Source: Amoebophrya sp. A120
Lineage: Eukaryota; Protista; Dinoflagellata
Length of the DNA stretch: 64,000 bases
Direction: 5' to 3'
Assembly: GCA_905178155.1 (NCBI GenBank)
Contig: CAJINV010000002.1
Location: 4,543,694-4,607,693, forward strand
Made by a program: the position numbers and the translations under genes. Shown in pieces: positions 5,301 to 53,300 of this stretch (its first letter is position 1; every line of letters begins with the position of its first letter). Under the pieces are notes generated by a model, which was given only the letters and a program-made list of their open reading frames with translations, did not search any database and had not been told where the DNA came from.

Positions 5301-8300
5301 GTAATGCATTTATACGAGTACGATACTTGTTCTGCAGCTGCATAAAACGCCTTTTTTCGCCGTGGAGCAGAAAGAAGCGGAACTTCACGACCACGGGCAG
5401 CAAGGAGCTACTTCTTACGCAATGCAAAAGCATCGCAATAGAAGAAATCGCATCACAAATTTTGTCAACATTAAAAAAATAGCAGTGAATTTGTAATGGT
5501 GAATATGGCCACACAGAGGTAGATCTGTTATGCACGATTGCGTCGAGTGGTACTGGTACTCGTACGAGTGCCATGATGCTTTTGCTGTGCATACTTCTGG
5601 TGGAGCAGCCGCGCGCCCGCTCCCGATGGACACCACCATGGAAAAGTTGGCCACCCTCGCGGCACATTGCGAGGCGGACGAACTTTGCACGGCTTTCATC
5701 TCTTTCGACGATGACACGCTGCGGACGCGGGAAGTACCCCCCGCGGAGGTGGCAGAAAAGGAGGAAAAGGAACTCAGCAAAAGAATCGACGAACTGTACA
5801 ACTCCGCATTTAACACAGCAATATCAAATGCAAATATGTCTGGGCCTGGAAACTTGAGTTGCTGATTCTTGCACTGCAGACTGGTCGGTTGTACGGTATA
5901 ACAGCATGACAAGTTATCCTCGCCCCATTGCGGGCTCATTCGTGTTTAGCATGACAAGCTGACTCCATCCAGCACGACAAAAATAAGAATGGTCAATCGT
6001 ATTTATGCATCACAGAGACAGATCTTGTTGTCCCTGAGCTTGAGGTCTCGCAGTACAAATCTAGACCCAAATGACGCATTTGCATTTGATAAGGAAATGT
6101 AGTTGACAACGGTGAGGGCGAGCTGCATTCCTCTGCTTCTACGACTGGTGGAGGGGTGTTGAGCGACATCAAAGATAAACACTCTCCTCAGCCCTTGGAC
6201 TTGCATCTGGCGGAGGATTATCAACTGTAAAAATGTCTGGGTCTGGAAGAGTGTAAACTTGTCATGCAGGTTTTTTATGACCCATGAGGTCTGTGATGCG
6301 GAACCTAGCACGACAGACTCTGTGAGGTCTCTGCCATGCCTATCCTGCATGAGTAGAAACTCCCTCCCAACTCGGTCGAAAGTGGACAGCTTTTGGCACT
6401 CATGCAACACAGATTTTTTCATGATTCGGATTTACCATGACAAGTTGCAATCTTCCAGACCCAGACATATTTGCAATCCATAAGGATTCGATCAAGTTCG
6501 GGGACTTTTTCGATGTCTACGAAGACGAGGAGATATTGGAACACATCCGAAATACTGCGGCACGGAAGCAATTAGCTGTGTCAGATTTTAGGACAATGTC
6601 AAACAGTTTGACTGATGAAGTAACGCAAAGAGGAACGTATCAACGGGCCCCGGGGACCATGGTATGAACTACTGCAAAAGTATCCGATACTCGTATAAAT
6701 GCATTACGAATTTTCTCAGCATGAGAAATGTAATTTGTAATGCGGATTTATTTTAGGAAAAAAAATTGTAATGCATGATTGCAATACGAGTGTGATACTT
6801 TTGCACAGGATACATCGACATGGACGAGTATATATCAACTGTAAAAATGTCTGGGTCTGGGAGAATCCAGCTTGTCATGCTGATTTTGGATTCTAAAAAA
6901 ATCTGTACTGCATGAGCAGCAATAAAGAGAGCCCAAGCTTTGCTACACGGAAAGAGCATTTGCCATGCGGTATAGGCATCAGGAAGCCCTCACAAAATCT
7001 GTGATGCATGGGCACGCATCACAGACATCAGGAGTCATGCAACATGTGCATGACGAACCTGGCAATCTTCCAGACCCAGACATTTTTACATTTGATAGTA
7101 TATCAGGATGAAAAATTATCCCCCCTCTCATATCAAAACGAAGTTTCTGATGCTGGCTCTGCGTTGTACACAAATGAGATTTGTCTTGCTGGCAAGGCTG
7201 CAGCCAGGCCCATATCAAGCCTGCAACACAGAGACGATTTGTGGTCACAAATGAGCAACGCAAATTTTCGAAAACGTACCTTGTCAATACGGGCGGGGGG
7301 GGAATAAATATCCTCGCGATAGAGTACGTGACGAATACAATCGCGAAGGAACATATCGCAGGAAAAAAATGTTTCACTGTAAACTTGTAATGCGCAGAGA
7401 TGAAGGCACCCCATCCCCAGAAGGATTTGTCTTGCTACACATGCAAGACAATGGATTTTTTTAGCTGTCTTTTCCCTTAGGAACCTAGCATCACAAAAAA
7501 TTTTCTCTGTCATGTTGAGCAAACCTGTTCTGCAAAACTTGCAAATCGTTTACAAAATCCTTACAGTGAAACACTTTTTTCTTGCGATAGAAAACGAAAT
7601 ACTCGGGGAGGACGCTGACTACAGAGAAGGTGATGAAAGTAAACGTGAGCCGGGTCGTACATATCCAAGAAAGAAACGTTGTTAGTGTAAATTTGTGATG
7701 CGCAACGTGCAAGATGATTGCGTCTGTCATGCTTGGCATGCATCGTAGGGTCCATTAAAGGGCGTTTTCGCGTACTATCTGCGCATGACAGGTTTTTGCT
7801 GTCATGCCAGACAAATTTGTAATGCTGTTCCTCCAAAAAAGTTACACCTACAATGTTTTTTTCTTAGATAGTACAACTGCCAGGAGTACTAGACGCGACG
7901 TCGACGCTGTTGCGCCGCCCAGCGAGGATGAGGATGACCTTGACGACCTCGACGATTTTATCGCAAGAAAAAACTGTTTCACTGTGAACTTGTGATGCAG
8001 AAAATGGATCGCAGAAGTGTGTGTCATCTACACATGCAAGACAGTGGATTTCTAGCTGTGTCTTCCCCGCCTAGGAACCCCGTATGACAGATTTTCAGTG
8101 TCATGCGGAACAAACTTGTGATGCAGATTTTGCAAAATCACCACAGTGAAGCAGTTTTTTCGTGGGATAGATTTGGACGAGGAAAAAGAGTTTGAGGAGG
8201 ATTTTCTTTTGTTCGAGCGGGCGCGCAACGCAGTGGGTCTCCCCATTGGCTGTCCGTTGGACTCGGGCGCGCTCATCATTGCCTCTATGCCCACCATATC

Positions 8301-11300
8301 CTGTGCAAAAGTATCGTACTCGTATTGCAATCATGCATTACAAATCTTTTTCTCAAGGTCACTCAGCATTACAAAATTCATTTCCCATGCTGAGGAAATT
8401 TGTAATGCATTTCTACGAGTACGATACTTTTACAGTTGATACACCAAGGAGAGTCAGTTTGGCAACACCGCCGGAGCACTCGATATCGATGTGGCCGCGG
8501 CGCAGCTGAGAGCAGAGAGGAACAAAAATATTGACCACAAAGGCAAGGAAGTACAACAGACTGCGCAGCAGGTGGAGCCCGATGGTAGTGCAACAGGAGC
8601 CGAAGGAGAAGATGTTCTTGCTGCAACTACAGCTGCAGCTCCAGGCACTAGCGACAGCGATCAAGACACTGTAGCTGCCCCAGCAATTACCACCTCGGAA
8701 GATGTTGATAAAGAAAAAACATCAGGTGGCTCTTTTCAACAAGAACAAGCGAAAAATCCGTACCAGGGCACGGATGAGCTCCATGCGCTGGGGCCCGAAT
8801 ATCAGCTAGGTTTTGGGAGGTTCAGCTACAGCAAATTTCTGGACCCGTATGCAAAGCAAATGTATCGTACTCCTCGTGGTATTGCAATACAGATTAGCTC
8901 AGCATGACAAATGGAATTTCTCATGCGGATTTAGCTCCAAAAAGAAATCTGTCTTGCATGACTGCGATAATTAGTACGAGTGCGATACTTTTGCAAAGGA
9001 TAACCCGGGGTGGAAGACAAAAAACAAATTGTGTGACAAAGAGGAGCTCCCGTTGCTGCGTGCCCCGCTGAAAACCACAGTGACGGTCGACAGTGTTGTC
9101 TTCGAGAAAACTGCCATGGAGGAGGAGGAAAGGGAGCTAAAGCGGTTCAGCAAAGAAAATGAAAGGGACAAGACGACTCATTCTACATTCACGGAAGTCC
9201 TCCTTGATGAAGTCAAGACAACCAATGCAGCAGCTGCTGCTGCTCACACTGCTTTTCTGGCGGAAGACCCGGGGACTCTGGGTCAAAGAACTACTGGCGC
9301 AAAAACTTCCTCCACTGTCAGCGTGGACGAAGCCGGTGCAGCAAGCCTGGTCGAGATTGAAGACGAGGAGGACGCAGAGTCGATATAGCGTCGTAAAAGT
9401 TGTATTTGACTAAGACCGTAAAAAAATTTTTGCGCGCATTTTTTCGCGGCGCCTATCTAGTAAACCTGTGCACGCAGACAAAAGGTCAATCCCAGTGCCG
9501 TTTATTTTGGCCCGCCTATGCGAAGCGCTTCTCAATAGCTAAATATGGACTGCTGCGGAGGTGAACGATTGCGGATCTGCCTCGGAGCGCCCTTAAAGCC
9601 CCGAGCTGCTTCAGCAGGTCCTCACGCAGGTCAGCGGCTAGGCAATGGGTCTCACTTTGTGCAGGTCGGTCGGAGTCGAGGGCGCAAATGGAACTGCCCG
9701 CGGCTGCGTTTCCAGTTGGTTCTAATGCCGTGCAGCTGTGCGCGCGTGTACCGGCACGCACGCGCGCTTTTTGCCTTTGTGGTTTTTTCTTGAAAAAGCG
9801 AGAAAGCCGACAGCCTCTCGGACGGGGTTCCCGGAGGGGCTCTGGGACCCCTTTTGGGGAGGGGTAGTACCATCGTGATTCAAAGAAAAAAAGATGGGCT
9901 TTTTGCTAGGGTTCCGGGCACCCCTCCGCCCCCCCCTTTTTGTTAGGGTTCCGGAAAGGCCTTCGCGACTAACATATGTGCGCGGAACTCGCTAGAGACA
10001 ACATCGCCAGGGCCTGCGTAGACATCTCTTGGGGCGTTTGCAGCTTCGCATCTTGATCCAGGCCATAGCTGCAAACAGCTGCAGTGGGCGAGCAATCCGG
10101 AAAAAGGAGCGAAGCGTTGTGAGTGCCCGGCGCTTTCTCTGTGAAAGCATCAGCCGCGAAACAATCCTCAGCGCCCCGCCCTCCTCCATGTCATTCTCCG
10201 CATAGCGGGCAGAGAATTGCTTCTGATAAGCTAGCTAAAACAAACGGCGCTCAAGTCAGTCTCTCACTCGCGTGCACGGGTTTAGTAGCAACACGCCGCG
10301 AAAAAATGCGCGCAGAAAATTTTTTACGGCTTTAGCCAAGTACAACTTTTACGACGCTATAAAGCCTGGTCGAGATTGAAGACGAGGAGGACGCAGAGTC
10401 GGCTTTTGATGTAGGCCCTAAAAAATCCATCTCTACGCCCATCTTTTCAAAATTTGCTCTATCGGTTTGCCGCCATTTCGTTGCATTCTCATACATAAAG
10501 CCTCTCGAGCAGCTCGACCGCAGATCCTGGCTGGCGATATTGCCTGACAGATTTTCCGGGTCTTGTTTTTCTTTTTGCAGCTTGGTGGAGGAGTGTGGTA
10601 GGAGTTGTGAGGCCAACTTGTCATGCACATCTCCGCGACATGCAGAAACAAGAACAAAACCGGGAGAATTTTACTGGGTGCGCGCCAAGTCCTGAACCGC
10701 TAGGGGTTTGGGAAGCTGCGCAGAAGATGCGGTGGGCGCTGTTTCCGAATCAGGCCCAAGCCAGGCCGGGGCTGATAAGAGGGGGGGCGCAGCCTTTCGC
10801 TTGGCTGCGCCTTGTGGAGGGTAAATTCGCCGGGGGCATTTTCCGCGTTTGTCGCTATTGCCGGGCGCCTTGCCTTACCTGCGCAAGCAGAGGCGCGCTC
10901 AGGGTCCATGGCCTCATATGATTGGGAGGCTCGTTTGGGTGGCTTTTCTCTTTGGGGTCTTTGGCTTGCGTTTCTGCCCCGGGCCTCGGGGCAGAAATAG
11001 AACAGCCCGGCTTGGCGCGTTTGCAAAGGCGGACGCGCAGCCGCCATCGAAGAGGCGCTACGCGATAATCGGCGAGGGCGCCACGCAATCAACTGGCCAA
11101 AATTTGAAAAGATGGGCGAAAAGGTGGATATTTTAGGGCCTTCATTTGAGATTGAAGATGAGGAGGACGCAGAGTCGGCTTTTGATGTTGATCTCGATGC
11201 TGGTCTTGAAGACATCGCTGAGCAGAAGGAAGAAGGGCCGGAAATACTGAATGAACCACCCGAGCATTCTTCGCCCCCCATGCGTGTATCCCCGACTTCA

Positions 11301-14300
11301 TCCCCATCAAGGGTTCCACCTTCTGCAACACGACGACAGTACACGGTTCCAAAGCGACCCTCGAAGTTTTTCCAGAAGGAGCTTTTGCGGCAACAAATGG
11401 AACAGGGAAGGATGAAAAGTTCTTCTTTTTCTCAACAGGGGAAGGAATTCCCCAATTCATCTGAAGAGGTGGTAGACCACGACTTGCATGATCAGGGAGC
11501 AGCAGTAGAGTCTGCTGCCAAGAATGCCGGCGCGCAACAAGCGGCAAGTACTATCCCGACAGCGAGCAGATTCGCGTTTGCCCGTGCCCAAGATGGTAGT
11601 AGTACGCCAGGGCAGCACCTCCACGACGGCAAAAATGATCCAGCTGAAGAGGATGCTGATGAGGAGGGCACAACCCCGCCGGTTCAAAAGGAAAATAACC
11701 CAACCCCGCCCACCGCCGCGCAAGTTGTAAAAGAACCTCCGAACTACAATAACAAAGTAGGACCTGATTCCGGAGGTGATAAAGATAAAGAAGAGACTGT
11801 CGCGCGACGATGTGGGATTCTCAATTGTTACATTGTCAGCTGTTACATGAATTTGTGATGGTACAAGAGTGAAACAGGGAGAGGCCGGATCTTGCAACTC
11901 TTGCATTACAAATTCGGCACAGATTCCCATGCTGTTTAGCCCTTCCAAAATTTGTAATGCGAAGTAGCTCCACCGTTTGCGTTTGGACGCTGATGCTCAT
12001 TTTGCATGGCAAATCATGTAACAGTTGAGAGTGTAACATTTGAGAACGCCATAGACGAGCCGTGCGCGTTATCGAAGCGGTGTCAACGCCTCGGCGAATC
12101 CTCACGGCCGAGAGCAGCAGCTTCATGGACATAAACCAAGGCATATCACAGGCAAAAGTGTATAGCGTCAATGGAATTTGTGTTGCAGTAATGCATCAAA
12201 AAACGTGCCCAAATTTGTCATGCATACCATGCATACAGATACAACAAGGCAAAATTTGTCATGCATGTTTGCAATCTAATATGAGATCCGCCACCGTTAG
12301 CACTTTTTCCTTTGATAAGGCACCAACCCCTTTGCAGAGGCGATGAGCCCGAACGTCGCCGCGTTTCACCAACCCACACCCGAACTGCACTCGAACGCCG
12401 CTAGTAGAAGTGCGGCCCTGGGGAGTACGGACTCGTTGACCAACCCGCGGGGGGGTGGGAAAGGCCGGTTTGGCACCGACGGCCTGTCCGATGACCTGGA
12501 GGAAACCAACGAGAGCATGCTACAACAGCGGTACAAAACTACCCGGCCCCTGTATCAAAAGGAAAAATCCCGCCTCCCCATATCAAAACGAAGCTTCTGA
12601 TGCTGGATTTCCGTACACCAATCAGATCTTCCTTGCAGTAGAGGACTGTAGACATACGCCAAGCCTGAATGGAGAGGTTTTGGCAGAGGCAACTAGCATG
12701 ACAAACGTCTAGGCTGTAAGCCCAACAGCATGTTGACAAACCGCCTCCATAATGCGGCGGACTCTCTGGGTTCGCCTTCTTGCAACACAGAGAGTATTTG
12801 TGGTCACAAATCTGCATCACAAATTTTCAGACGAGTGCGTTTTCAGTATGGGGAGGGGGGATTTTTCCTCACAATACCCTGTACGTGAAAAAGCAAGCTT
12901 ACGAGACCGCGAAGCAAACCTATGGATGTGTCAGGATCGAAATTGTCAAAAATGAAACAGTTTGTCATGCATAAAATGCAGCGCAGAGGCAGAGATTGTC
13001 TCTATTGCAGAGGACGCAAGAGAGGCAGACTGTAAGCCTGTGGAGGGGTAGAAGTAGAGCTGCTCAAGTAGCATGACAAAAGGCGTCGTCCTTACCCAAA
13101 CAGCATGACAAATTGGATTGAGATAATTCTACCCAAATTTGTCATGCGCCACAAAATGCCAGCCCGTAGTAGCACAGTCTGTTTTTGTCATGCGCCACCT
13201 GGAAACTGGGACTCAACTGGCCTCCATTTGATTATGCATGGCAAATTATTTCAGCTTTGTCGATTTCGACCCTGACAGTTCCATAAAACCAAAAAAGTGC
13301 TACTCGGGTATCTAATCTCGAAAAAATACATGTCCACGCCAAATCCACTGACAAACAAAATCCACGGCGCAGCGTTGCAGCCAGCAGATATTCGCAAATT
13401 GCTCGGTGTTACAACTGAAGAAGAAGCGGCACTACAAGAACCCGCTATGGACGAAGAAAAGTTGGTCGCGGCGGAACAAGCGATAGAGGAAGAAAAGTTG
13501 CAATTGGACGAAACGGAAGAGAAAATGAAGTTTCTAAGCGCGTCCGCCCGACGTCGAATTATTGAAAAAGAAGCGGCACTCGCCAACCAATTGGAGGAGG
13601 ACCAGGACCGGCTTGCTGCGATGGGAGTTGTGCGAGACAAAGATGGAAACTGGAGGAAAACGCGAAGAAGAATATGCATTGCAAAAGTATCGTACTCGTA
13701 CTGATTGCGTTTATGCATTACAAATCTCTTTATTAAGGCAAATCCGCATTACCAATTCAATTTGTAGTGCTAAGTGAATTTGTAATGCAATTTATACTAG
13801 TAAGTAAGTACGATACGTTTGCACTTCATAAAGCAAAAAAAAGCGCAAAAAGCAAACTTTGCAGGAAGTGTTCCGCGACCGCAAACCGACTTCCCAGTTT
13901 GCATTTCGGGCACAGGATGCACTGCAAATGTGTCTGGGTCTGGTAACTTGTAATGCTGCGATGGGAATAGTGAATGCTCTGTAATGCACAGCCCAGCATA
14001 AGAAATACTTATCTGCGCTACTTTGTGTTGCGTTTTTCGCATGACGAGCTGCGTTTTTGCATGACAGGCGAAAGGGTCTCTTGTTGGACACGCATCGCAA
14101 ACTTTTTGATCATGCCAGACAAGCGTGACAAATCTCGCAATCTTCCCGACCCGGACACTTTTGCATTTGATAGGCAGCAGTCCAACGCAAAATTTGGCGC
14201 GCGCATGATCGAAGAGCTCCGCGAACAGGAAACGGCCGCACTGCTCGATATGGCGTTCTCAAACGTATACATTCTCAGCTGTTACATGATTTTTTGCCAT

Positions 14301-17300: not shown

Positions 17301-20300
17301 GGGATTTTTCCTCACAATATTCGGAAGTGGGCGGTAAGCAGGGGCGCTACTGCTCCGCAAACACGCACAAGCTGTACGGGCTTTGGGAGCGCACGCTGGA
17401 ACGTATCCCACTGGACATGAAAAATCCGTTCCTGATGGAGCGGCGCCAGTGGATCACGATGGGCATGCACCTCGGGGCAAGGATGCCGGTTCTGGACCTA
17501 CACACCCACGACATTGGAAGGTACTATAACTTATGAGGAACATCATGATCTTCAATGGCACTACGAGATGAGGACCAACAAGACAAAGGTCAAAGCAGTT
17601 TATTTCAAGTCCTCGCTGCACGAGCGGACTATTGAAATTGGTTTGTTTTGATGTGTAACATGTTAGAGGTTCCTTTTTTTCATCCAAATTACACAGGTAC
17701 CACCAGTGGCACAATGACACCAGCAAGAAGCACCACTCTCTGTGGGGGCGCAGCCATGCGGTGGAGAAACAGAAGCACAAATCGCAAGCCATTGTCTTAC
17801 AGCTTGGATGGCCATTAGATTTCTCTGTGGTGAATTTCCGTTGATTTTAGGGGCCTGCAAGAGTTCGATAGTGGCTCCGCGAATATTCTTTCCCGCAAAG
17901 ATCGACATCCACCCGATGAAGAAGCCGGGGCGACCTAACGCCCAAAAGGCTCCCGGTGGTGGCGGAATTTTTCCCGGGAAAAAAAACGGGATGGGGCGTC
18001 GCAGTGTGTAGCTGCATTGTCAGCGCCCTATCCCCCGGGTGATGAGTTGCGAAGTAGCTTCGCGTGGTTACTTTTTGTTTTGTGGGTGCTGCGGATGGTT
18101 TGCCGGGCTCGGTGGTTTGGGTCTGCCAGATGCTCTCCATAGCATGGAGAGCATCTGGCAGCTCAAGTAGCACTCACAAAAAAATCATTGCCATAGCATG
18201 GCGTTTCGCTTTGAAAAGCAGCCCTTTCCCGATGGTGCTGTTGTTTTCCCCTTGTCTTTCTTGCCCAAAATTGAAACACGGAAGCTGAGAGTTGAAGCTG
18301 AATGATTCAAAGTCATGAAGCCACCAAACGACTCAACTTCAACAAAAAAGAAAAAAGTAGCCGCCTGCCAAGGGTGTTGCGTGGTGAGGATTTTCATCCA
18401 AACGGATTGACCCATGCCAGGGATCATAACGGGCGGGGCGACTTCTGTTTTTGCCTTCCATTTCGCAGACCACGACTACCCTGAAAGCCGAATGGTGACA
18501 CAGGACCGCCTTCAAAAATCACTGGAAATTCACCGGCCTTAAAGCTAATGGGTGCCCAAGCTCTAAGCCATGCCCCGGAGAAACAGAAGCACAAATCGCA
18601 AGCAAAAACAGCCCTCCCCTTCTCGGTGCTGGAAACAAAACAGAAACAGAAAAAATCGCAATTTTGGAAATCCGTGAAATCTTGGTGGAGCGGAGGCAGT
18701 TCAAAGAAGGAAGACGAGGGGGCTATCAAAATGAAGAATCCCCCCACCCCATACTCAAACTAGAAATTTGTGATGCAGATTTGTGGCCACAAATCAGCTT
18801 TGTCATGCTAGAAGGGAAAAGAAGCGGACTGTAGGGCTGGTTGGAGTGGGAAAGCCTTGCATCATCAGCATGACAGGGGGGAGCTGGAAGTGGGAAACAG
18901 CATGACCAATTGCCTGCAAACGAGGCCACAACTGCGTCTCTTGTGCTTCTAGCTTTACAAGTCGATTTGTGTACTCAAATACAGCATAACAAATTTCGTT
19001 TTCGATATGGGAAGGAGGGATTTTTTCTTTTGATAGGGGCGGCCGGAGCTGCTTCAGAAACCGGGCCTGAGCATGACGGGGGCGAAGAGATAAAATCAAC
19101 AACTCCTGTTGCTGGCGCGGGTAAAGAAGATCCTGCTCCCGCTGATAGTAGTGGTAGTAGTGCAAGTACTACTAGTACTACGACCTCCACGAGCACCACA
19201 ACTAGCAGGAGAAAGTACTTTCAGTTTTCCGACCCCGTGCAGGACACCAGAGCGCAGCTTCTCATTTGGGTATCAACTGCAAAAATGTCTGGGTCTGGAC
19301 ACTTGTGATGCTGGGTGGCGTATCATGAGGAGGCCACAAGTGCTCGCTCAGCATGACAAGTTTCTGAGCTTCTAGGTGTAGTTGCCCGCTCTGCATGACA
19401 AACTGCGTTTCTGCATGACAGAAACATAAGGCTCTTGGGTAATGTGCATGACAGATTTAAGAGTCATGCGAGACAAGCATGACAAACTTGCAACCTTCCA
19501 GACCCAGACACTTTTGCAATGCATATTGGGAGGCGGAAGACGAGTCACTTGCAACAGCTCGCGCCCTCGTCCCGGCCGTGCCGCCGCCGTTTTGGGACGT
19601 GGTGTTTTTCAGCAAGCAGCTGGGACTAGTTGACGGGCTACAGGATAAGGTCGGTGGTCTGTTCACCACACTGGGAGAGATGAAGACCAGTCTTCTCTAC
19701 TCGTTGTGGGGGAACGTTCCCGTGCAGAGCTTGTTCGTTCCCCTCGCAGAAAAGCTGGACGAATTTCTGGTGAAATACACCCGGCTCAAGGGCTGGCTAT
19801 GAATTGCAGCAAAAGCATCGTACTAGTACGAATTGCATGACAAATTGGCTTAGCATTACAGATTGAATTTGTAATGCGGATATGCGTTACGAAAAAGATT
19901 TGTAATGCATAAACGCAATTGTTAGTACGAGCGCGATACTTTTGCAGTGCATACTGGCGGAGCTACTACGACGCGAAGCCGACCTCGATCATGGATTTGG
20001 TGGAGGACCCGGTGTATGCACTGCAAAAGTATCTAGTATGATTTGCATGACAAATTAGCTCAGCATGAAAAGGGGAATTTGTCATGCTGTTTTACCTTGG
20101 GATGGAGATTTGTAATGCATGACTGCGAAGATTACTACGAGTATGATACTTTTGCAGTACATACTGTCCAGGCCAACTGCGACTTCGATGATGAGGACCG
20201 AAAAGTGTGTATCATTTGTAAAAACGCCTCCATCTTCCCAGAGTTGTAATGCAAATCTGCATGATGCTGAAAATGTTTCTCATGCGGAGACCCACGAGAA

Positions 20301-23300
20301 AGAGCTGTCTCTACTGGTGTTTTGAGATTTGTGATGCGCAAATCCGCACTGCGTGGTAGATCTGTGATGCTGCTGCACTAGCGAAACACGACTACCACAT
20401 TGCGAGCCCAAAGAACTTGTTATGCGCAACAGCCAAACCTTGGCGCTTTGTCTAGCAGATTTCCCATCTTGACTTTGGGGTCGTGGGGACGTTTTTGCTC
20501 ACCATAGTGCGCCAGCTGCTCCAATCTGAGCGTGCGAACTATGGCGTTCTCAACTGTTACGTGTTCAACTGTTACATGGTGGATTTGTGATGCAAGAATG
20601 GCAAACGTGAAAGGGGGAAGGTTGCGCCTGTAGCATTACAAATTCTGAACAAATTTAGGTGCTGTTTGGCCCTTCGCAAATTTGTCATGCGAAGCAGCTT
20701 GATCGTGTGGATGGTGATGGCATTTTTGCATGACAAATTCATGCAACAGCTGAGAGTGTAACGTTTGAGAACCCCATACGAACGGGATGCAGGTGAACCA
20801 GATGACCGACCCCGAGAGGCAGCAGATGAAGCAGGCGTTGACTGTCGATGCCAAGGAGGAGGCGCTGGAGGAGCAAGAAAGTTCGATGCAGCACTATTTC
20901 GACAGTACGGCCTATCCTACGCAAAAACGGCCCGACGACACCGTAGGCAAGATGGAAAATTTGCTTCACAGATCCGCAAGTCTTGGCTGTCGCGCATGAC
21001 AAGTTTGGGCTAGAAGTAGTGTAGTAGTCCTCTTTACCTGCTGCTAGCGCAACAGCATTACGAATCGACTACCTTATCGTTATCCTAATTCGAGCATGAC
21101 AAATCCCAAAACAGCGTTAGAGAATACTCCTCATGGGACTGTGTCGATGAGAAACTACCTGTTAGGTGTGCAGATTTGCATGACAACTCTGGGGAGGTGG
21201 GGACGTTTTTGCTCAGCATACGGCAAAGCAGCTGTTTATGGATGTGTCAGAGTTGAAATCGTGAAAGTTGAAATAGTTTGTCATGCATAAAATGGATGCC
21301 AGTTGGAACCCAGTTGCCAAGTGGCGCATGACAAACTTCGGCGGTCCCTAAATCCAGTTTGTCATGCTGTTTAGGCAAAGAAGAGCGATTTTCTCATGCT
21401 ACTTTAGCAGCTCGATCTGTAACCCCAAACAGGCTGACAATCGGCCTCACTTGCCTGCTCTGCAACACACGTACCTCGGGTCATGCATTTTATGCATTAC
21501 AAATTATTTCAACTTTGACGATTTCAAACCTGACGCTTCCATACTATTTGAGCAAAATGACGTGTTGCGGGAGAGCGACAAGGTGCGGAGCGCGCGCGCC
21601 AGGGTGCTCATATGCATTCTTGCAAAAGTAATATCGTACTAGTAGAAATCGCATCACAAGTTTATTGGTCGGTATGAAAGATGGATTTTTTAATGCTGTG
21701 ATTAGTGTACACTGATAGATCTGTCATGTTGCCTGATTGCCATTTTTACTACGAGTGCGATATTACTTTTGCAATGCATAGCTCAATAGCCAAAGCGAAA
21801 GCACCGCAGCTGCCGCGCAAGAGGCGGAAGACACACTGCAGGGGCGGAAGGAGCACCTCGCGCAGAGGGCTATGGAGTCGCTGCTGCCCCAGGGACCGGA
21901 GCGCTTGCGGGATTTTGTGGAAACCTTCCCGTTATGCTTTGCAAAAGTAAAAGTATCGTACTCCTAGTGGAAATTATCGCATTACAACTTCGGTCAGCAT
22001 GACAAATGGAATTTGTCACGCTGTTTTACCTTGGGATGGAGATTTGTAATGCATGATTTCGATTACTCCGCGTGCGATACAACTTTTGCACAGGATACCC
22101 CTTCCGCCTCATTTTCCCGCACGGGATGGTGCTGGCCTGCTCCGCCGTGTATCACGAGGAAAAATCCCCCCTCCCCATATCGAAAAGGTACGCCGCAGAA
22201 AATTTGCAATGCTGACCTGCGACCACAAATCATCTCTGTCTTGCAATAGCAGGCAACATCACACTACATTCCGCCGCATTATGCAGGTGGTTTGTGATGC
22301 TGCTGAGCCTACAGCGCAGACGTGGTCTTTTATACTAAGCGCCTAGACCAAAACCTCGCCCCTGCGCAGGCTTGATATGGGTCCGCAGTCCTCTCCCGCA
22401 AGACAAAGCTGATTTGTGTACGCATTTCAGCAACAGAAATTTCCGTTTTGATATGGAGAGGTGGGATTTTTCACTTTGATACCGTGCCGGCGGTGTTCAT
22501 CGACCGCGAGTCGGCCGACGGATCGGGACGTATCAAACAGAAAAAAATCGTCACGATCACTCATGCGCATTTTTGCAATGCAAAATTTTCTGTCATGCGT
22601 AAAAATGCATCACAGCCAAACTTCGTAACGGATTTCCTTCGTGTGTCTGCAATACAAGGAAAAGTTGTGATGCTAAAAACATTTGTAATGCAAAGCCTTC
22701 AATTTAGTGACTGTGGCAAACTCTGTTCTCTCCATAACACGGCCCAGGATCGCACTGCACAAAGTTTGGGACATGGACCTGGACACCGACGACATGGTAC
22801 AGGCTTGGTCCCTATCAAATGTAAAAATGTCTGGGTCTGGAAGAATGCAAGATTTGTGATGCAGCAGGTTTTCCATGACCCATCAGGTTTGGAATGCGAG
22901 ACCCAACATGACAGATTTTTTGAGGTCTCTATCATGCCTTTCCTGCGTGAGAAACTCCCTCTCAACTTGGTCAAAAGCGGACAGCTTTTGGTACTCACGC
23001 AACACAGATCTATGCATCATTCAGATTTAGCATGACAAGTTCTACCCTTCCAGACCCAGAGACTTTTGCACTTGATAGTCCCGCGCCTACGGCCCCATGG
23101 TGTACGAGGACCTACCGTTGGTTGCGGACCGACATATAAATTGCAAAAGCATCCTACTAGCATGAATTGCATTACAAATTTCCTCAGTACGAGAAATGGA
23201 ATCTGTAATGGTGATTGACCTTATATCAAATGATAAAAGTACTCAACTCTATTTTTACTCATAGGGCAAAAAAAAAATTTTTTGAGTATATTTTTAGTTC

Positions 23301-26300
23301 AGAATTCAAGGCAGGCAGCATCGCCAAAGCGAAAAGGGACTCAAGGTAAGTTGCGGAATGGTCTACCTGTTGTGTGTTTTTCAATGATAATGCTGCTTTT
23401 AATTAATCTAGATCATCTGCAGGCTTAGCTATGTGATTAGCTAGATAATCAAGTGTATTTTTGAACTAATATGAAACGATCTGAAGCCACAGAGCTTGAG
23501 AAGCATTGCCGGGAAGGACTTGCTGGGAGATCGCCGCGGGGTTTGACCAAGGAGGACCGCCTTCAAAAGCGGCCACATTCGTATTTGTGGTTGCAGACGA
23601 GGTAGTTGTGGATCCAGCAGCTGTGCGGATTCGGGCGAATCCGCTGGCCTCGTTCCTGATGAACTAGCTGCTCCGCCTCCGATCGGGTCCTGCGAGAGCT
23701 TTGGTGTAGCTGCTCCTCGGCAAAGTATCCTGCTGAAGACCTCCCAGCAAGTCTTCGTCGGCTGCTTCGGTCAAGCTCTTTAAGCTTGAGGGCTTTTATG
23801 ATGAAAGTCGCTATATAGCTTTGAACTAGCTATTCACTTAGCTAAGCCTGCAGATCTAGCTAGTGAAACATGAATCAAAATGATAAGCAAACTCAAACCT
23901 TCAATTGCTCCAGGTGGATCCGGTGTCGCCAATCCCGAAGCATCTCCTCAGGAGATGCTTTGTTTTTAATAAATAAAAACCTACTCAAAATTTTTTTTTT
24001 TTGCCCTATGAGTAAAAATAGAGTTGAGTACTTTTCTAATGTGATACCTTAGGGAAAAGACTTGTAATGCATATACTGCAATTACAACTACAAGAGCGAT
24101 ACTTTTGTACTGGATACGACACAAGCAGAAGCAAGCAGAAGCGGCGAGGGCAGCAGCTGCCTCGGCCCGCCAAGCGGAAGCGAAGGCTAAGCGCAAACTG
24201 TTGCTGAAGAGGAAAGTAAAAAATAAGAAGCGTCTTTCCCGGAAGCAAAACAAGTGGAAGGAAATTGCGAAGATATCAAATGTAAAAATGTCTGGGTCCG
24301 GAAGAATGCAACTTGTCATGCTAAAAAAATCTGAAGCATGCAAAAATCTGTGTTGCATGATTACCAAAAGTCGTCCAGTTTTGACCAAGTCGGGAGGGAG
24401 CTTCTCATGCAGGATAGGCATGAGAGAGATCGCACAGAATCTGTCATGCTAGGCCCTGCATTCCAGACCTCATGGGTCATGGAAAAGCTGCATGACAAAG
24501 AAGTCGCACACTCTTCCAGACCCAGACACTTTTGCATTTGATAGAAGAGAAATAAGAACAACTTCGTTGGCAAGGCCCTCCGCGGACTTCAGAGCCTCCG
24601 ATCGTCCTTCCTATCAACTGCAAAAATGCCTGGATTTCTGGAAGGCTGCGAACTTGTGGCGCGTGTTGCGGATCATACAAAAATCTGCGTTGCATGACTT
24701 GCAAAAGGTCTCCATTTCTCGCCATGCCGAGAGGGCGTTTCTCAAGCAGAAAGGGCATCACCAGCACGCTGCAGAACCTGTGAAGATGCTAGGCCCTGCA
24801 TTCCAGATTTATTGGCGGAGCTTGGAAAATAAACTGCATGACAAATCTCGGAATCTTTGAGATAACCCAGGCATTTTTGCATTTGATACTTCCAACGCCT
24901 CCACAATGTCAATGACGACTATGTCTCAACGCGCCACATGAACTGGCACCGCAAGGGCCTTCAGATCGAAGAGCCGGAGGACGGTGCAGATGAAGATAAT
25001 ACGACCGCAGCGCCGTCGATGGACGACAAGGTAGTTGACGAACTGCAAAGTGAAAGTAATAGTGAAAAGAACGGGGAACAAGAGCAGAAAAGTGAAACAA
25101 CCTCCTCGAGGACGACTGATAGGACAACAACCGGCGCAAATGAAAATGTTGGGGAGGCAGACGAGCTGGAAGCAGGGGCAGAAAATGAGAACACCTCCCC
25201 TGCAGCGAAAAATGAAACCTCGTCCACGGCCTCCGCCGTGTGGGCGGAAGGTCTCCGGCGCGGGGCGGAAGGCGCCGAAAAGATAAAGGGGCATGCCGAA
25301 GGGGCCGCCAGATATCTTCGTGACAAGGCCGGCGACTATCCTGAGTAAAAACGTACCCACACCAGAGTCAGGATGGGGATTTTGCAACACAAACCTAGGA
25401 GTTTTGTGAGTCACGCATGACAAGTTGCGCCCTGCAGTGTAGTGCAGGTTAGCAAGCGCAGCCGCATCACAGATTCATCTGCTCATCCTGTTCACAGCAT
25501 CACAAATTCAAAAACGCTATTGGAAATGGCTCTCATGGGGATGCGCATTACAAATCTTCCTGTCTTCGCAAATCTGCACTACAACTCTGGCGTGGGGACG
25601 TTTTTACTCAGGATAGCGACGCCGTGCGGTCGCAACTGAGGGGGATGCTGGGCAAAAAGGCCAAAAGGGGCATATAACCCGCTCAGGTCCTACAATCTCA
25701 AGCGTTACAATAGAATATGGAAATCTGTGATGCAAGAGTGCATGATCTAGCCAAGTCTCATAGGATTGCGCATGGCAAGTTCATCCGGGGCCCCAAACCC
25801 CAAAACAATCTGCCGAAATTCGTATTGCAGAAAGTGCCACGCTCGGCGATTCTGTCATGCCGAGCGTGCAACACAAATTCCAGACTCTCTTGTAACGTTT
25901 GAGACTGTAACACCTGAGCAGGTTATAGGGCATCGCGCGGCTGTTCTCGTCCTGGCAAGCGAACCGGTACACGATCAAAGCTATGAATTTTTGCAAAAGT
26001 ATCGTACAGTACTCGTGTAAATGCATTGCAAATTTTCTCAGCATGAGAAATGAAATTTGTAATGCGGAGTTACCTCAAGGAAAAATAATTACGTACGAGT
26101 GCGATACTTTTGCACACGATCAACGCCAACGGGCGGCAGGCGAAAGAAAAAGTGTACTACCCCGTGTCCGAAGTGTGTGCAAAGAAAAAAGTGTTACAGT
26201 TACACATTCCATTGTGTTGCAAGCCCAGCATGACAGACAACCTCTGTCATGCCCGAAATGCTCCCGCGCTTCGTTCCATACATGTTTTCCCTTATGATCT

Positions 26301-32300: not shown

Positions 32301-35300
32301 GCAGGATGAAGCAGAAGAAATTGCCGCCGCGACTAACCAAACGAGTACTTCTACAGGGCTCGAGCATGCCGTCCAGCCGGTTACTGTCGTCACGAAGAGA
32401 AGCGAAAAGGACGTCGGCAGCGACTCAGATAGTAGCAGCACCGAGGAAGAGGAGGACGACGAACAAGACGATGCAGTTTTCTCGGCGGAGAAGTGCTACT
32501 TGTCGTACAACGAGAGAAGAGAGATGCTCGGCAGAAGCAAAAAGACGAAAAGCTTTCTCCAGGAGGGATCGTCTGGATCTGGTACTACTAGAGCAAGTAG
32601 ATCTAGAAGATCATCTTCTTCTCAAGGTCGTGGGAAAAACAAAAAGAAGAAGAAAAAGAAACCGAGATTCGCGGTCGAGGAGTGCCTCACGTACCGAGAT
32701 CTGTACTCGGTCTGCGACCAGGGGACGGTGCACTGCAGCTTTGACCAGGACATGCTGTTCCCAATCTGCATGTCGGCCATTGCCAATGTGGGCGCGGTAT
32801 CCTGTGCAAAAGTATCGTGCTCTTACTAATTGCGTTTATGCATTACAAACAAGGTCCGAGCACGGGGACAGAGTGGTCCCCGTGCGGCGACCTTCGTTCC
32901 GGCATTTGTCCGCGCGGTGGCACTGGGCAGGCAGGTCGCCTGCAGCTAGGTATCTCGGTGCGCCTTGCACTCACTGACCCGCGACGGGCCTGCGGACGCG
33001 GCCCCCTTGCTTGCGCGCACTAGGTTCATTAGCCTGCCGCGCGCAAAGATAAAAGTAAGAAACGAAGAAACTGGCGCGCGCCGGGTCTGGAGCCGGCCCC
33101 CAGGTCATGACGCGGCGACGGAGTCCCCGCACTGCCCTAGGGCTTTTCTCTGCCCCTTCCATCCTTGGCCGCGCGGTGTGGTGTCCGGGGAGTGTTCCTT
33201 CGCAGCTAGCCCCTAGCCATGACGCGGGGACCGAGTCCCCGCGCTGGCCTAGGGCTTTCGCCCCTTGGCCGCACGGTGCCCAGGAAACGCTCACAGCTGG
33301 CCCCTAGGCCATGGCGCGGGGACCGAGTCCCCGCGCTGGCCTAGGGCTTTCGCCCCTAACTTGGCCGCACGGTGTCGCCGGGGAGCGCTCGCAGCTAGCT
33401 GGCCCCTAGGCCATGGCGTCAGTCGGAGGGCCCCGGGGCCATTTTGGGCGCTAAAAAATTGCTAAATTTTGCGCGATTTTTAAAAAACCCGGAAGCCGGC
33501 GCGTGATGAAGGGCGCCGCCTTTTCCAAGCCGGCCCCGTTTGGGCATTGGTGGCGGGTGGTTGCCTGCCCCGCCCCGGTAGCTGCGCGCAGGGGGCCCGC
33601 GTAATATTTCGCGCGCTCTCGGGCCGCCTCCCCTCCGCCCCCGAGAGGCTTCGCGCGGGGCCGCGTTGGTTTTCGGGTTTCGCTGATTTTCCGCAGCCGC
33701 GAATTCCTTGCGTTGTCCGTTTCCTTTGTGGGCCACCGGGGCGCCCGGCCTTGGCAAGCATCACGCCGGCGGGCGGCCTGGCGAGCGCGGCCCCCCGTGT
33801 CTTTCCCGGCTCGGGCCCGATGGGTGCCCGATGTCGGTAGGAGGTTGCTCTGCCCCGGGTATTTTTTGGGTCCCGGCGCCGGGGATGTTTCGGCCCTTTG
33901 GTTAGCAGAAGGCGCGCGACCAGAGTCGCGCAAAAGGTCCGGGCACAACCATTGTCGCATCCTTCGCGAACTGCTAAAACGGCCGCTAAATCCGGACCAC
34001 AGGCGTTTTGGGAAGGATTTTGCGTTTTCGCAGGTTTTGCGGAAGGTCCCGGGCCCTTCGCGGACCGTACCGCCGCCCTTCTCCAGCAGAAATTTAGCAG
34101 GGTTTTTAGCAGGCATTTTTAGCACCCAAATTTAGCAGGATTTTTAGCAGGGATTTTTAGCACCCAAATTTAGCAGGTTTTTTAGCAGGATATTTAGCAC
34201 CCCAAAAATAGCAGCATATTTAGCAGCAAAAATAGCAGGCATTTTAGCAGGTCCTAAAATTTGCCGTGTATTCGGGACCTCGCGGTCGTGTTCTCTGCAA
34301 TGGCCGAAAGAATGCCGGCTAAGGTTTTGCATCGGGGGCGTGGCTCCTTAATGAAAAAGGGGCGAGCCGGCTCCTTTGATTTTGGGGCCGCGGCAGTGGG
34401 TTATCTGGCTCGGGCCGCGGGGTGTGTCGTTCCTTGTGTTGCGCACCCAGTACCGAAACCCGGCGCCCCACCGCGCCCCCGCCGGGCGCCTCTGTTGCCG
34501 CCCTAGCGCCGTTCCTTGGGAAGGGTTCTGGCTTGGCACTTTGAAAAAATAAGACAAAAAATAGCGCGAATTTAGCAGGCCCAACCGCCCCGGGCCCTCC
34601 GACCGAATGGCGCGGGGACCGAGTCCCCGCGCTGGCCTAGGGCTTTCGCCCCTTGGCCGCAAGGTGTCCGGGAAGCGCCCGCAGCTGGCCCCTAGGCAAT
34701 GACGCGGGGACAGAGTCCCCGGCCGCGCGCGCTGGCCTAGGCAGGGCTTTCGCCCTTTGGCCACACGGGGCCACGAGAAGTGCTGCGAGCTAGCCCCTAG
34801 GCCGTTGCGCGGGGACCGAGTCCCCGCGTTGCCCTAGGGGTTTCGCCCCGCCCTTGGCCGCGCGGTGTCCGGGAAGGATGGAAGCGCGCACAGCTGGCCC
34901 CTAGGCCATGACGCGGGAACCGGGTCCCCGCGCTGGCCGAGGGCTTTCGCCCCTTGGCCACACGGATTCACGGGGAGTGCTGCCTCCAAGCTTGCTAGCC
35001 CCTAGGCCATGGCGCAGGGAACGGGCCCCCGCGCTGGCCTACGGCTTTCGCCCCTTGGTCGCACGGTGTCCGGGACGCGCTCAGTCACAGCTGGCCCCTA
35101 GGCCATGACGCGGGGACCGAGTGCCCGCGCTGGCCTAGGGCTTTCGCCCCTTGGCCGCACGGTGTCCGGGAAGCGCTCAGTCAGACCTGGCCCCTAGGCC
35201 ATGACGCGGGGACCGAGTCCCCGCGCTGGCCTAGGGCTTTCGCCCCTTGGCCACAAGATGTCCGGGAAACGCCCACAGCTGGCCCCTAGGCCATGACGCG

Positions 35301-50300: not shown

Positions 50301-53300
50301 TACTCAACTGAAGACTCTGTGGAACTTTCGCTCTCAGAATTATATGTCGTGGCGTCTTCACTAGTCAAAAGCCAATCGCTGCCACCCAAAGCAAGGCCCA
50401 GTCGTCCTTCCACTGATCCAGAAGGTGCAGGCGCCGCAATCGCCGCCGTCGGCACGTAGCTGCCGATGCTGTAAGCAACAGCATCAAACCTCACTAAAAA
50501 AATTTTTTTTTTAGCAAGTGAAGTTTTTAAAAGTGAAGCGTTTAGCCGTGTGATAGGCAACTCGTCAGTGTGGACGAAATACTTCGAGGACAATCTCTTC
50601 TCGTCCAATTGGAACTTAAACCCATTTCGGTGGAAATGGGGCGGGTCAACAGCAACTACTAGTACAACGAGTAAAATAAACGAAACCGGCGATGCCGTGG
50701 AGAAGGAAAAGAAAGAGCAGGAACAGGCAACGGTATTGGATGAGCCCCGGGCTGAGGATGCACTCGAAAAGTTAGTGGACAACGCGCTCGAGCCGCCGAG
50801 TATGGAAGCGTCGGGATTAATATCGGCAATGTTGAAATAAAAAGTAATTCCTCATGCATAAATTGCAAGGCATGCAGTTGATGGTTCCTCTCTTGCAGGG
50901 ATGGCAAGTGAGGCCGACTGTCAGCCTGTAGCTCGGGGTCTGCGATAGAGCTGCTAAAGCAGCATGACAAGAGACGCCTTCGTTCCCTAAACAGCATGAC
51001 AAACGGGATTCAGATGGTGCCAAAATTTGTCATGTCCCGCTTCAAAATTGGGCTTCCAATTGGTATCGATTTTATGCATCGCAAATTTTCAACTTTGTCG
51101 ATTTCGATCCTTACGCCCCCATACTGAGCGCGGCCTTTTTACCGGGCGTAAACCGGGACGAGGAGAAGCTGCTGTATTACAGTGAAACATGCCCCCACCC
51201 ACAAAGGTGCAAAATTTTGTGATGCAAGGTTTCCAAATGAAAACTTTTTGTTGCGCATGAAAGGAGTATGAATCTTTCTGATGCAGATTCTTGGCGTGTA
51301 TCGCATCGCTTGCATGACAGGCGCCGCTCTTGCTGGGGTCTTTTGCAATAAAAATTTTTCCTCTTCACGATAGGAACTCTGTGATGCTGATAGATGCAGG
51401 AGGGCGAGTGTTTCATTTGGAAAGGTTTGCAATACAAATCAATGCTCCCAAGTTCGGGGGTGGGGGCATTTTTCATTGCAATATGCTGGAAACCGAGTGC
51501 TACGTGCGGACCTGGAACGAAGCAGTAGACTACGTGTACAATGTCCGCGAGGAAGTGGGAATGGCGGATGAGCTCCTATGCATTGCAAAAGTATAACGTG
51601 CTAGTCGTAATTGCAATACAAATTACCTCAGCATGACAAGTGGAATTTCTCATGCTGTTTTACCTTGGGATGGAGATTTGTAATGCACCATAACTGCGAT
51701 GATTACTACGAGTACGTCGATACTTTTGCGGTTGATAGCTCCACACCCTGAATAACTGCATGAAGACGTGGGGCCTGAAGCCCCAGGTGTCTACGCACGA
51801 ACACGAACAGGCCTTGCGCCACTTTCTCCCGGGGGTAGCCGAAGACACAAGGCAGTTGCGCATCCTACTCCACCTTATCCACAGAAAATTTCCCATACGC
51901 GCACAATCAAATTCAAATGCGGCCTCTGCATGACAAACCTTGGCTTCGATCCTAGTTTAGCATGACAAGTGATGTTACACTCCGAATTGACGAGATTTGT
52001 GATGCATTTTGTCCATGTAGTTGTACGGGAAACAAATTTGTATTGCATACCCCTAGAGGACATCGTAGAAGATGCGTCAGGAACCTCCCCGTGGTGCGTG
52101 GCCAAAAAAATGAGGGACGATATCGCTCGCCGCATGAAAGGAGGAAGTGCTTCTTCTAATATGGGCGAACAACAAGAAACAGCACGCGAGAGCACAACAT
52201 CAGGCGGCGCAGCGCCGCAGGAGGGCGGTTTAGATGCTGAACAGGCAGAAGAAGCAGCTGCTCGTATCAAAATGGAAAATCCCCCCTTCCCAACCCCAAA
52301 TCAAAATGGAAATGAATCTGTGATGCGGGATTTGTGTACACACATGAAATTTGTGCTGCAGTACAGCACTGCACGCAGATCGCAGGCCTAAGTGGGGACG
52401 TTTTTTTGTAGGCGCCTAGCATAGCAGACGCCTGCACTGTTGGCCGCCTTACAGCATTACAAGTCGCCTGAGTACTTATTTACGTGGCGGACAGCCTGAG
52501 TGCGCCTGCTTGCAAGACAGACAGGATTTGTGGTAGCAAATCTGCATCACAAATTTGCAATATGGGGACGAGGGGGGATTCTTCCTTGCAATAGCTCGCA
52601 GAGAGCACGAAGACCACGTGCGTGCAACCCACGACGCACGGTATCGGGCTATCCTGTGCAAAAGTATCGTACTCGTATAGTATTGCAATCATGCATTACA
52701 AATTTTTTTCTCTAGGTAAATCCGCATTACAAATTTTATTTCTCATGCTGAGGGAATTTGTAATGCATTTATACGAGTGCGATACTTTTGCAGTTCATAC
52801 GGGCTGCGTGGGAACAAAAAATGAGTGCTGGTGGTACTCGCGGAGGCCAAGGTGGAGGTGTGGCGCAGCCGGAAGGAGATCCACTGCACCAGCGCGGAGG
52901 AGGTCGTGGTACTCCTACTCCGCGGGAGCAGACGACGCGGAATCTTCACCATGACCAAGGAGCGACGTCGAATCAGCATGGTAAAAATTCGCCGTCCTGT
53001 GTGGATTCCCAGTTGCGAAGGGCTTTTCTGATTGACAAAATCGTACATGTTCTGGAGAAAGTGGTCGATGCGGATTTGGTCTACGACTTAGAGTATCCAA
53101 CGCAAATATCGATCTGGGTCTGGAAGAGTGCAAGTTTGTCATGCTTGTGGTCTCACATGACTCTTGAACCTGGATTGCGTGAGCAGGAAATAAAAAGCCC
53201 CTTGCTTGTCATGCAAAAATGTAGCTCGTCATGCGGAAAACGAAACACTGAGGAGCCCAGAAACTTGTCATGTGTGGCTGTCTATTTTTGCAGTGCCCCC

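Follow-up and report, generated by a model that had tools for sequence, protein, structure and literature searches.

Four unrelated elements bounded by terminal inverted repeats (TIRs), L1–L4, lie within coding frames in a 64-kb stretch of DNA (64,000 bases; hereafter the window) from Amoebophrya sp. A120, a syndinian parasite of dinoflagellates, and each is flanked by direct repeats of some 26 to 40 bp (Table 1). We put at about an even chance the explanation that L1–L4 are non-coding TIR elements inserted through a long staggered cut, with L1–L3 likely to be spliced and most of the duplication retained in frame. According to this proposal, a DDE transposase supplied in trans would act on the ends of L1–L4 and cut its target with a long, variable stagger, leaving duplications of 27–40 bp at insertion. 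L1–L3 would be excised from the RNA adjacent to the base of the hairpin, most of the duplication would be kept in the mRNA, in frame, and insertions into exons would survive only where such in-frame removal is possible. L1 and L2 together would add 69 nt (23 codons) to the mRNA, giving three copies of an acidic motif.

Table 1. Elements, duplications, host frames and predicted introns, in window coordinates.
Feature	Position	Strand	Description
L1/L2 host frame	6741..11855	+	615 codons open after removing all insertions and one repeat each
L1 left duplication	9343..9382	+	40 bp of coding-frame sequence, identical to 10362-10401
Element L1	9383..10361	.	979 bp; TIRs 9384-9475 / 10270-10361
47-bp island	10362..10408	+	overlap zone of the right duplication of L1 (10362-10401) and the left one of L2 (10372-10408)
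Element L2	10409..11147	.	739 bp; TIRs 10409-10456 / 11098-11145, plus 2 unpaired right-end bases
L2 right duplication	11148..11184	+	37 bp, 36/37 identical to left copy
L3	17763..18603	+	787-bp element; exact 27-bp repeats at 17763-17789 and 18577-18603
L4	49781..50585	+	745-bp element; exact 30-bp repeats at 49781-49810 and 50556-50585
Exons of annotated partial A120 protein P0001 (CAD7933402.1)	50652..52184	+	five exons, matching letter for letter
Predicted GT-AG intron over L1	9379..10364	+	986 nt; in-frame retention of 33 duplicated nt predicted
Predicted GT-AG intron over L2	10411..11150	+	740 nt; retention of 36 nt predicted
Alternative predicted L2 intron	10411..11147	+	737 nt, GT..TT; would keep 39 nt (coordinate arithmetic)
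Predicted GT-AG intron over L3	17794..18580	+	would keep 27 nt in frame

An earlier note on this DNA had described two unrelated TIR elements of 0.98 and 0.74 kb, stacked between direct repeats of coding sequence of 40 and 41 bp. Both elements are present as claimed, and blastn detected no similarity among L1–L4, this pair included. The TIRs of L1 (92 nt, 87% identity, with weaker pairing out to about 150 nt) end in TAT...ATA, with one additional A at 9383, the position at which a second copy of the family likewise begins in contigs from sequencing runs. Those of L2 are shorter (48 nt, 88% identity), and L2 plus its repeats folds with z = -6.1. The TIR scores found within the repeats were matched by 0/3000 (L1) and 3/3000 (L2) random position pairs. 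For L1 the 40-bp repeat stands, being identical at 40/40 positions (9343-9382 versus 10362-10401). The 41-bp repeat of L2 (10372-10412 versus 11148-11188) is identical at 40 of 41 positions, and its sole C/T difference falls at a third codon position and is synonymous. Other copies of L2 have left ends at 10409 or 10410 (runs X6 and X3) and a right end at 11147 (two contigs of run X1, one of X6 and one of X7); L2 is therefore 739 bp long with a duplication of 37 bp (10372-10408 = 11148-11184), and the final 4 bases counted in the "41-bp" repeat belong to the end of L2 itself. Read-through from the host frame into L1 terminates, as had been noted, at an in-frame TAG at 9386-9388. L1–L4 contain no transposase-size open reading frame (ORF): the longest beginning with Met ranges from 82 aa, in L1, to 153 aa, and a Pfam scan of the L2 plus-strand ORF gave no match.

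We checked in the run contigs whether the triplication could be an assembly artefact. A contig of run X1 covers 9343-10391 with 0 differences at a depth of 41.8 (flanks, 40-44), a second covers 11118-11906 without a difference at flank depth, and both L1 junctions are also present in run X3, a library from the X1 sample that is rich in indels. Assembly error is thereby excluded, the left junction of L2 not being among the listed pieces. Both elements are multi-copy, since the contigs show distinct flanks. Summed depth reaches about 25x flank for L2 and about 13-16x for the ends of L1, values that, we stress, are not copy numbers. Contigs of the L1 family pile up on the ends, and parts of the interior are at single depth (85% likeness), as would be expected if the ends are recognised in cis. 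Contigs related to L3 are present in run X1. Among other copies of L2, two left and two right flanks compared by eye share no long overlap, and one flank pairing in run X6 would give 3 bp; these flanks come from different contigs and may belong to different copies. In runs X1, X4 and X6 there is a subtype that is common to L2 over 10668-11147 and different in its left part, and one variant in run X4 diverges at its right end past 11128.

Exact direct repeats of at least 12 bp, spaced 100-6000 bp apart, were collected from the 64-kb window. The search gave 1189 repeats, 107 of them low-copy, and outside the short-element families only those of L1, L2, L3 and L4 reach 25 bp. Each of these four encloses a TIR pair in the top 0.4% of 3000 random pairs. 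The TIRs of L3 are weak (17793-17848 / 18515-18570, 73%), and in L4 (49807-49849 / 50496-50538) the left arm is 17 nt shorter; the L4 duplication would be 26 bp if the last 4 repeat bases belong to the element. A search for decayed long repeats in the window, with the families masked and 20/24 matches required, found none. The claim of a class of such elements thus holds in that it recurs, four times in 64 kb, with multi-copy families for L1 and L2. The proposal that the cuts are staggered by about four helical turns is not supported, since the lengths vary (40, 37, 27 and 26-30 bp). The junctions between TIR and repeat are also ragged: they are offset by +1, -2, -4 and -17 nt, and L2 and L4 each show an overlap of 4 nt on the left.

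The short elements of the window behave differently. An exact 5-bp duplication flanks 64 of 81 short TAT...ATA elements (11 others have one mismatch and 6 have more), and no repeat of at least 10 bp adjoins any of the 81. Dependence of the duplication on element length was rejected as an explanation; elements of 823 and 4149 bp also carry 5-bp duplications, so that length alone does not give long repeats. We consider it quite probable that long repeats are a property of the L1–L4 families. Searches beyond the window gave 0 matches in Rfam and 0 matches to the L2 TIR pattern in genome contigs. One TIR match in a metagenome contig was a bare 21-mer without a partner arm, and the TIR patterns had 0, 2 and 0 matches in viral contigs, the two being of only 23-25 bases; all of these were set aside as chance.

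With the insertions and one repeat each removed, host frames of 615 (L1/L2), 250 (L3) and 476 codons (L4) are open. These are three separate frames, otherwise intact, and one of them was struck twice at the same site by L1 and L2. An open frame proves nothing by itself, since enumeration of near-end cuts for L1 and L2 gave 5040 combinations that leave the frame open. The L1/L2 host frame is of low complexity and without a Pfam match. It had no match among the longer proteins and two weak, low-complexity matches (27-29%) among the representatives, and no homologue or annotated protein was found for it in these searches. Pfam run over 34 plus-strand ORFs gave nothing above the cut-off, with sub-cut-off hits for 3 of the 34, and revealed no transposase among them. 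The frame of P0001 runs through the L4 site. P0001 itself begins 66 nt past the right repeat of L4 and, because it starts there, is neutral or slightly adverse on splicing of L4.

Splicing of L1–L3 is suggested by the position of candidate splice sites. Within 5 nt of both ends, a single GT-AG pair that is in frame and free of stops is present in each of L1, L2 and L3; in L4 there is none. When the same elements were inserted in silico into exons of the window, such a pair arose in 1-10% of cases, and the probability of three or more in four is about 6e-4, in what is a post hoc test with n = 4. The outcome is stable when the distance allowed is set to 4-10 nt (P 2e-4 to 0.04); at 3 nt the test fails (1/4), and at 15 nt significance is lost. 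The short elements, put through the same test, pass in 8/86 cases on the plus strand and 18/86 on the minus strand. An AG lies within 4 nt of all four right junctions (P 0.019). The predicted L1 and L2 introns would enclose an exon of 46 nt (10365-10410). Inverted repeats of A120 introners are described as lying 1-5 nt from splice sites (PMC7789003), so removal of a whole 40-bp copy is unlikely. From the sequence we judge it probable, with some reserve, that L1–L3 are spliced with in-frame retention of most of the duplication. The acidic motif EIEDEEDAES had been claimed to occur three times in the DNA and once in the restored frame; the three DNA copies are there, but "once" is probably wrong, as the geometry of the splice sites favours retention. 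In the protein the motif is predicted to occur three times, with the last residues of the first copy altered. None of 8 run placements (7 different runs) gave RNA cover of the exons; runs X7, X8 and X9 had no cover of 9102-9452 and 11208-11558 and X6 almost none, which makes them uninformative on expression, and the contigs from these runs hold no spliced or empty form and no joint across L1/L2.

Among the points against the best explanation are that L4 fails the GT-AG test and that no annotated protein was found for the L1/L2 frame. In a rival reading, which we regard as rather unlikely, these are young insertions with long duplications that are not spliced and that disable or truncate the genes they sit in, L1 stopping its frame at the TAG. 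The missing protein fits this, as does a partial P0001 that begins just past L4. The two repeat copies differ at 1/134 sites in the long duplications compared with 17/390 in the short ones (Fisher P 0.054), and only 2-3 bases in 137-180 separate L2 from the relatives most often found; with repeat copies this nearly identical, the insertions may be too young for host genes to have decayed. Unspliced insertion is countered by the in-frame GT-AG pairs at three of the four elements, and by the three frames that are otherwise intact, one of them hit twice.

As to how the duplications arose, we lean slightly towards a transposase rather than RNA or repair routes. A DDE enzyme is favoured because the ends of the copies are fixed and better conserved than the interiors, because there is no tail and because bacterial precedents exist. 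The ragged junctions count against clean two-ended strand transfer and keep target-primed reverse transcription and repair or re-insertion alive. Aberrant local re-insertion and repair synthesis are known from work on the P element and Ac, and L1–L4 could be elements with short duplications whose long repeats originated later, through aberrant re-insertion involving a sister-chromatid end or through hairpin repair synthesis. Ragged junctions, the 17-nt loss at the left arm of L4, the TAT...ATA ends that L1 shares with the 5-bp families and the stacking of L1 and L2 at one site would all suit such an origin. It is nonetheless unlikely, given that none of the 81 short elements has a long repeat and that four unrelated families fall in a narrow range of 26-40 bp, where accidents should scatter widely.

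Copying of a hairpin RNA by non-LTR enzymes through target-primed reverse transcription seems to us unlikely as well. It would give long, variable duplications and untidy 5' junctions, and here the lengths do vary and the left junctions are ragged with short overlaps. LINEs with very long duplications are described (Dualen, R9; PMC9977147), and A120 has introners that have been attributed to non-LTR elements (PMC12130899). However, L1–L4 carry neither a poly(A) nor a simple-repeat tail, the ends of other L2 copies shift by no more than 1 base on either side, and in the L1 family the ends are better conserved than the interiors.

The P0001 annotation removes four short elements, each as the element plus 5 nt, at ends that are not GT-AG. 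None of the 4 annotated introns has a GT-AG register, so A120 does not need one. Exact restoration of the original mRNA, by splicing that removes each element with one whole repeat, could draw on this annotation and on GA..AG and AT..AG registers within the repeats of L1 and L2 and a GC..AG register within those of L4, but it is improbable, since L1–L4 offer no GT..AG register for it, its splice site would have to lie as much as 40 nt from the hairpin base where the published distance is 1-5 nt, and it leaves the in-frame end sites of L1–L3 unexplained.

Among known systems, L1–L4 come close to the introners of A120, for which direct repeats of 3-5 nt (3-8 surveyed) and inverted repeats starting with TAT are described (Farhat et al., 2021, PMC7789003). 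Like these, L1–L4 are TIR-bounded, non-coding inserts in coding frames; inverted repeats join both ends, L1 and L2 are repeated in the genome and L3 has related contigs. Unlike the introners, with their 3-5 nt repeats, L1–L4 have duplications of 27-40 bp. Of the motif described for the inverted repeats (TAT, 7 bases, at least 3 A), the TAT start occurs at both ends of L1 and at the right end of L4, with the run of A shifted by 1-2, and is absent from L2 and L3. The short elements of the window fit the published description; the annotation removes them with one whole repeat, whereas L1–L3 are predicted to leave most of it. In the account of Gozashti et al. (2025, PMC12130899), A120 family fam26 has 32 intron copies, a length of 730 bp, a 10-bp TIR, 5' splice sites that read GT in 20 cases and AT in 10, and splice positions that fall 4 and 6 columns beyond the limits of the called element. 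L2 resembles it in having a perfect 10-bp core TIR (10414/11140), with true ends 5 and 7 bases outward, and a left end that offers both AT and GT, a likeness by description only, for which fam71 was also named as near. It differs in that fam26 is called there with a 3-bp target-site duplication (TSD) and with non-canonical 3' ends in all 32. No TSD exceeds 9 bp in 50 of the 58 A120 rows of supplementary file 8 of that paper, introner TSDs are given as 3-9 bp elsewhere (PMC9860276), and the motifs of L1–L4 were not found in the supplements searched.

In sharing TIRs without a transposase, L1–L4 resemble MITEs and other non-autonomous cut-and-paste elements, but these have a short, constant duplication specific to the superfamily. 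Long duplications together with TIRs are found in bacteria, in the IS1202 group (16-28 bp, with a sister group at 3-5 bp that parallels the 5-bp families of the window; PMC10132070) and in IS1549/IS1634 (variable, 8-514 bp; PMC2266710). No sequence link to either was found, and these are bacterial, autonomous, transposase-coding elements that are not introns, whereas L1–L4 have no ORF of the size of a transposase. An Aureococcus introner is described that adds 12 bp to the transcript and whose duplication stays in the protein (PMC9860276); there an 8-bp duplication gives 4 residues, compared with a predicted 9-13 residues per insertion for L1–L3. Eukaryotic elements with long or variable duplications include the LINEs Dualen-4b and R9 (PMC9977147) and Replitron-1 (bioRxiv 10.1101/2022.12.15.520654), whose fuzzy ends recall the ragged junctions here. 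As described, the first two are non-LTR elements and the third is an HUH element, and they lack long TIRs, unlike L1–L4. Retroposed, SINE-like elements have the long, variable duplication in common with L1–L4, which lack the poly(A) or simple-repeat tail. Such elements are often truncated at the 5' end; here, two other copies of L2 have left ends at 10409 and 10410, and the left arm of L4 lacks 17 nt.

How long a duplication they leave is one of the characters by which DNA transposon superfamilies are defined. Duplications of 27-40 bp in a class of eukaryotic TIR elements would imply that integration follows another geometry, and they make the transposase worth looking for. We found no eukaryotic TIR element with duplications of 25-40 bp in the openly accessible papers searched. 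For the long bacterial duplications, an account from 2008 reports that no mechanistic model had been proposed (PMC2266710). We suggest, tentatively and at somewhat less than an even chance, an undescribed group of eukaryotic TIR transposons with a variable stagger of 25-40 bp or more that become introns and write tandem repeats of 9-13 residues into proteins. If this is true, transposons would give rise to peptide repeats by a route that escapes surveys of introners limited to bases near the splice sites; the survey of 2022 compared bases equidistant from the two splice sites (PMC9860276) and, for that reason, would be expected to miss a repeat offset by 30-40 nt. Were the duplications to stay in the mRNA, every insertion would add a tandem repeat to the protein, and this would tie the spread of introners directly to the protein evolution, fast and of low complexity, that is reported for Amoebophrya. 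A long repeat also separates cutting at the hairpin base from restoring the empty site, which 5-bp repeats cannot do.

The window as a whole is densely broken up by short elements (about 80, of 145-370 bp, in many families), and 28,558 of its 64,000 bases lie within repeats having 3 or more hits. The exact 5-bp duplications begin with C or G in 46/64 cases. In the short introner at 50801-51128 a single base distinguishes the two 5-bp copies, and at that position P0001 keeps the left one, which bounds the 5' splice site of the element. The 823-bp TAT...ATA element (23224-24046) has 73-nt TIRs and a 5-bp duplication; its size and ends recall, by description only, the Ginger-like A120 family fam38 (808-810 bp, 5-bp TSD, TA/TA ends; PMC12130899). 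At 32798-36946 a member of the 150-bp short family has grown to 4149 bp and kept its 5-bp duplication; the insert is GC-rich, with a roughly 92-bp tandem array. A third duplication class, of 8-9 bp, is represented by a GC-rich element of 4453 bp at 55352-59804, which has 967-bp TIRs (98% identical) and no Pfam hit in its scanned plus-strand ORFs. A GC-rich block (61%) at 1-1000, truncated by the start of the window, is possibly the end of another long element.
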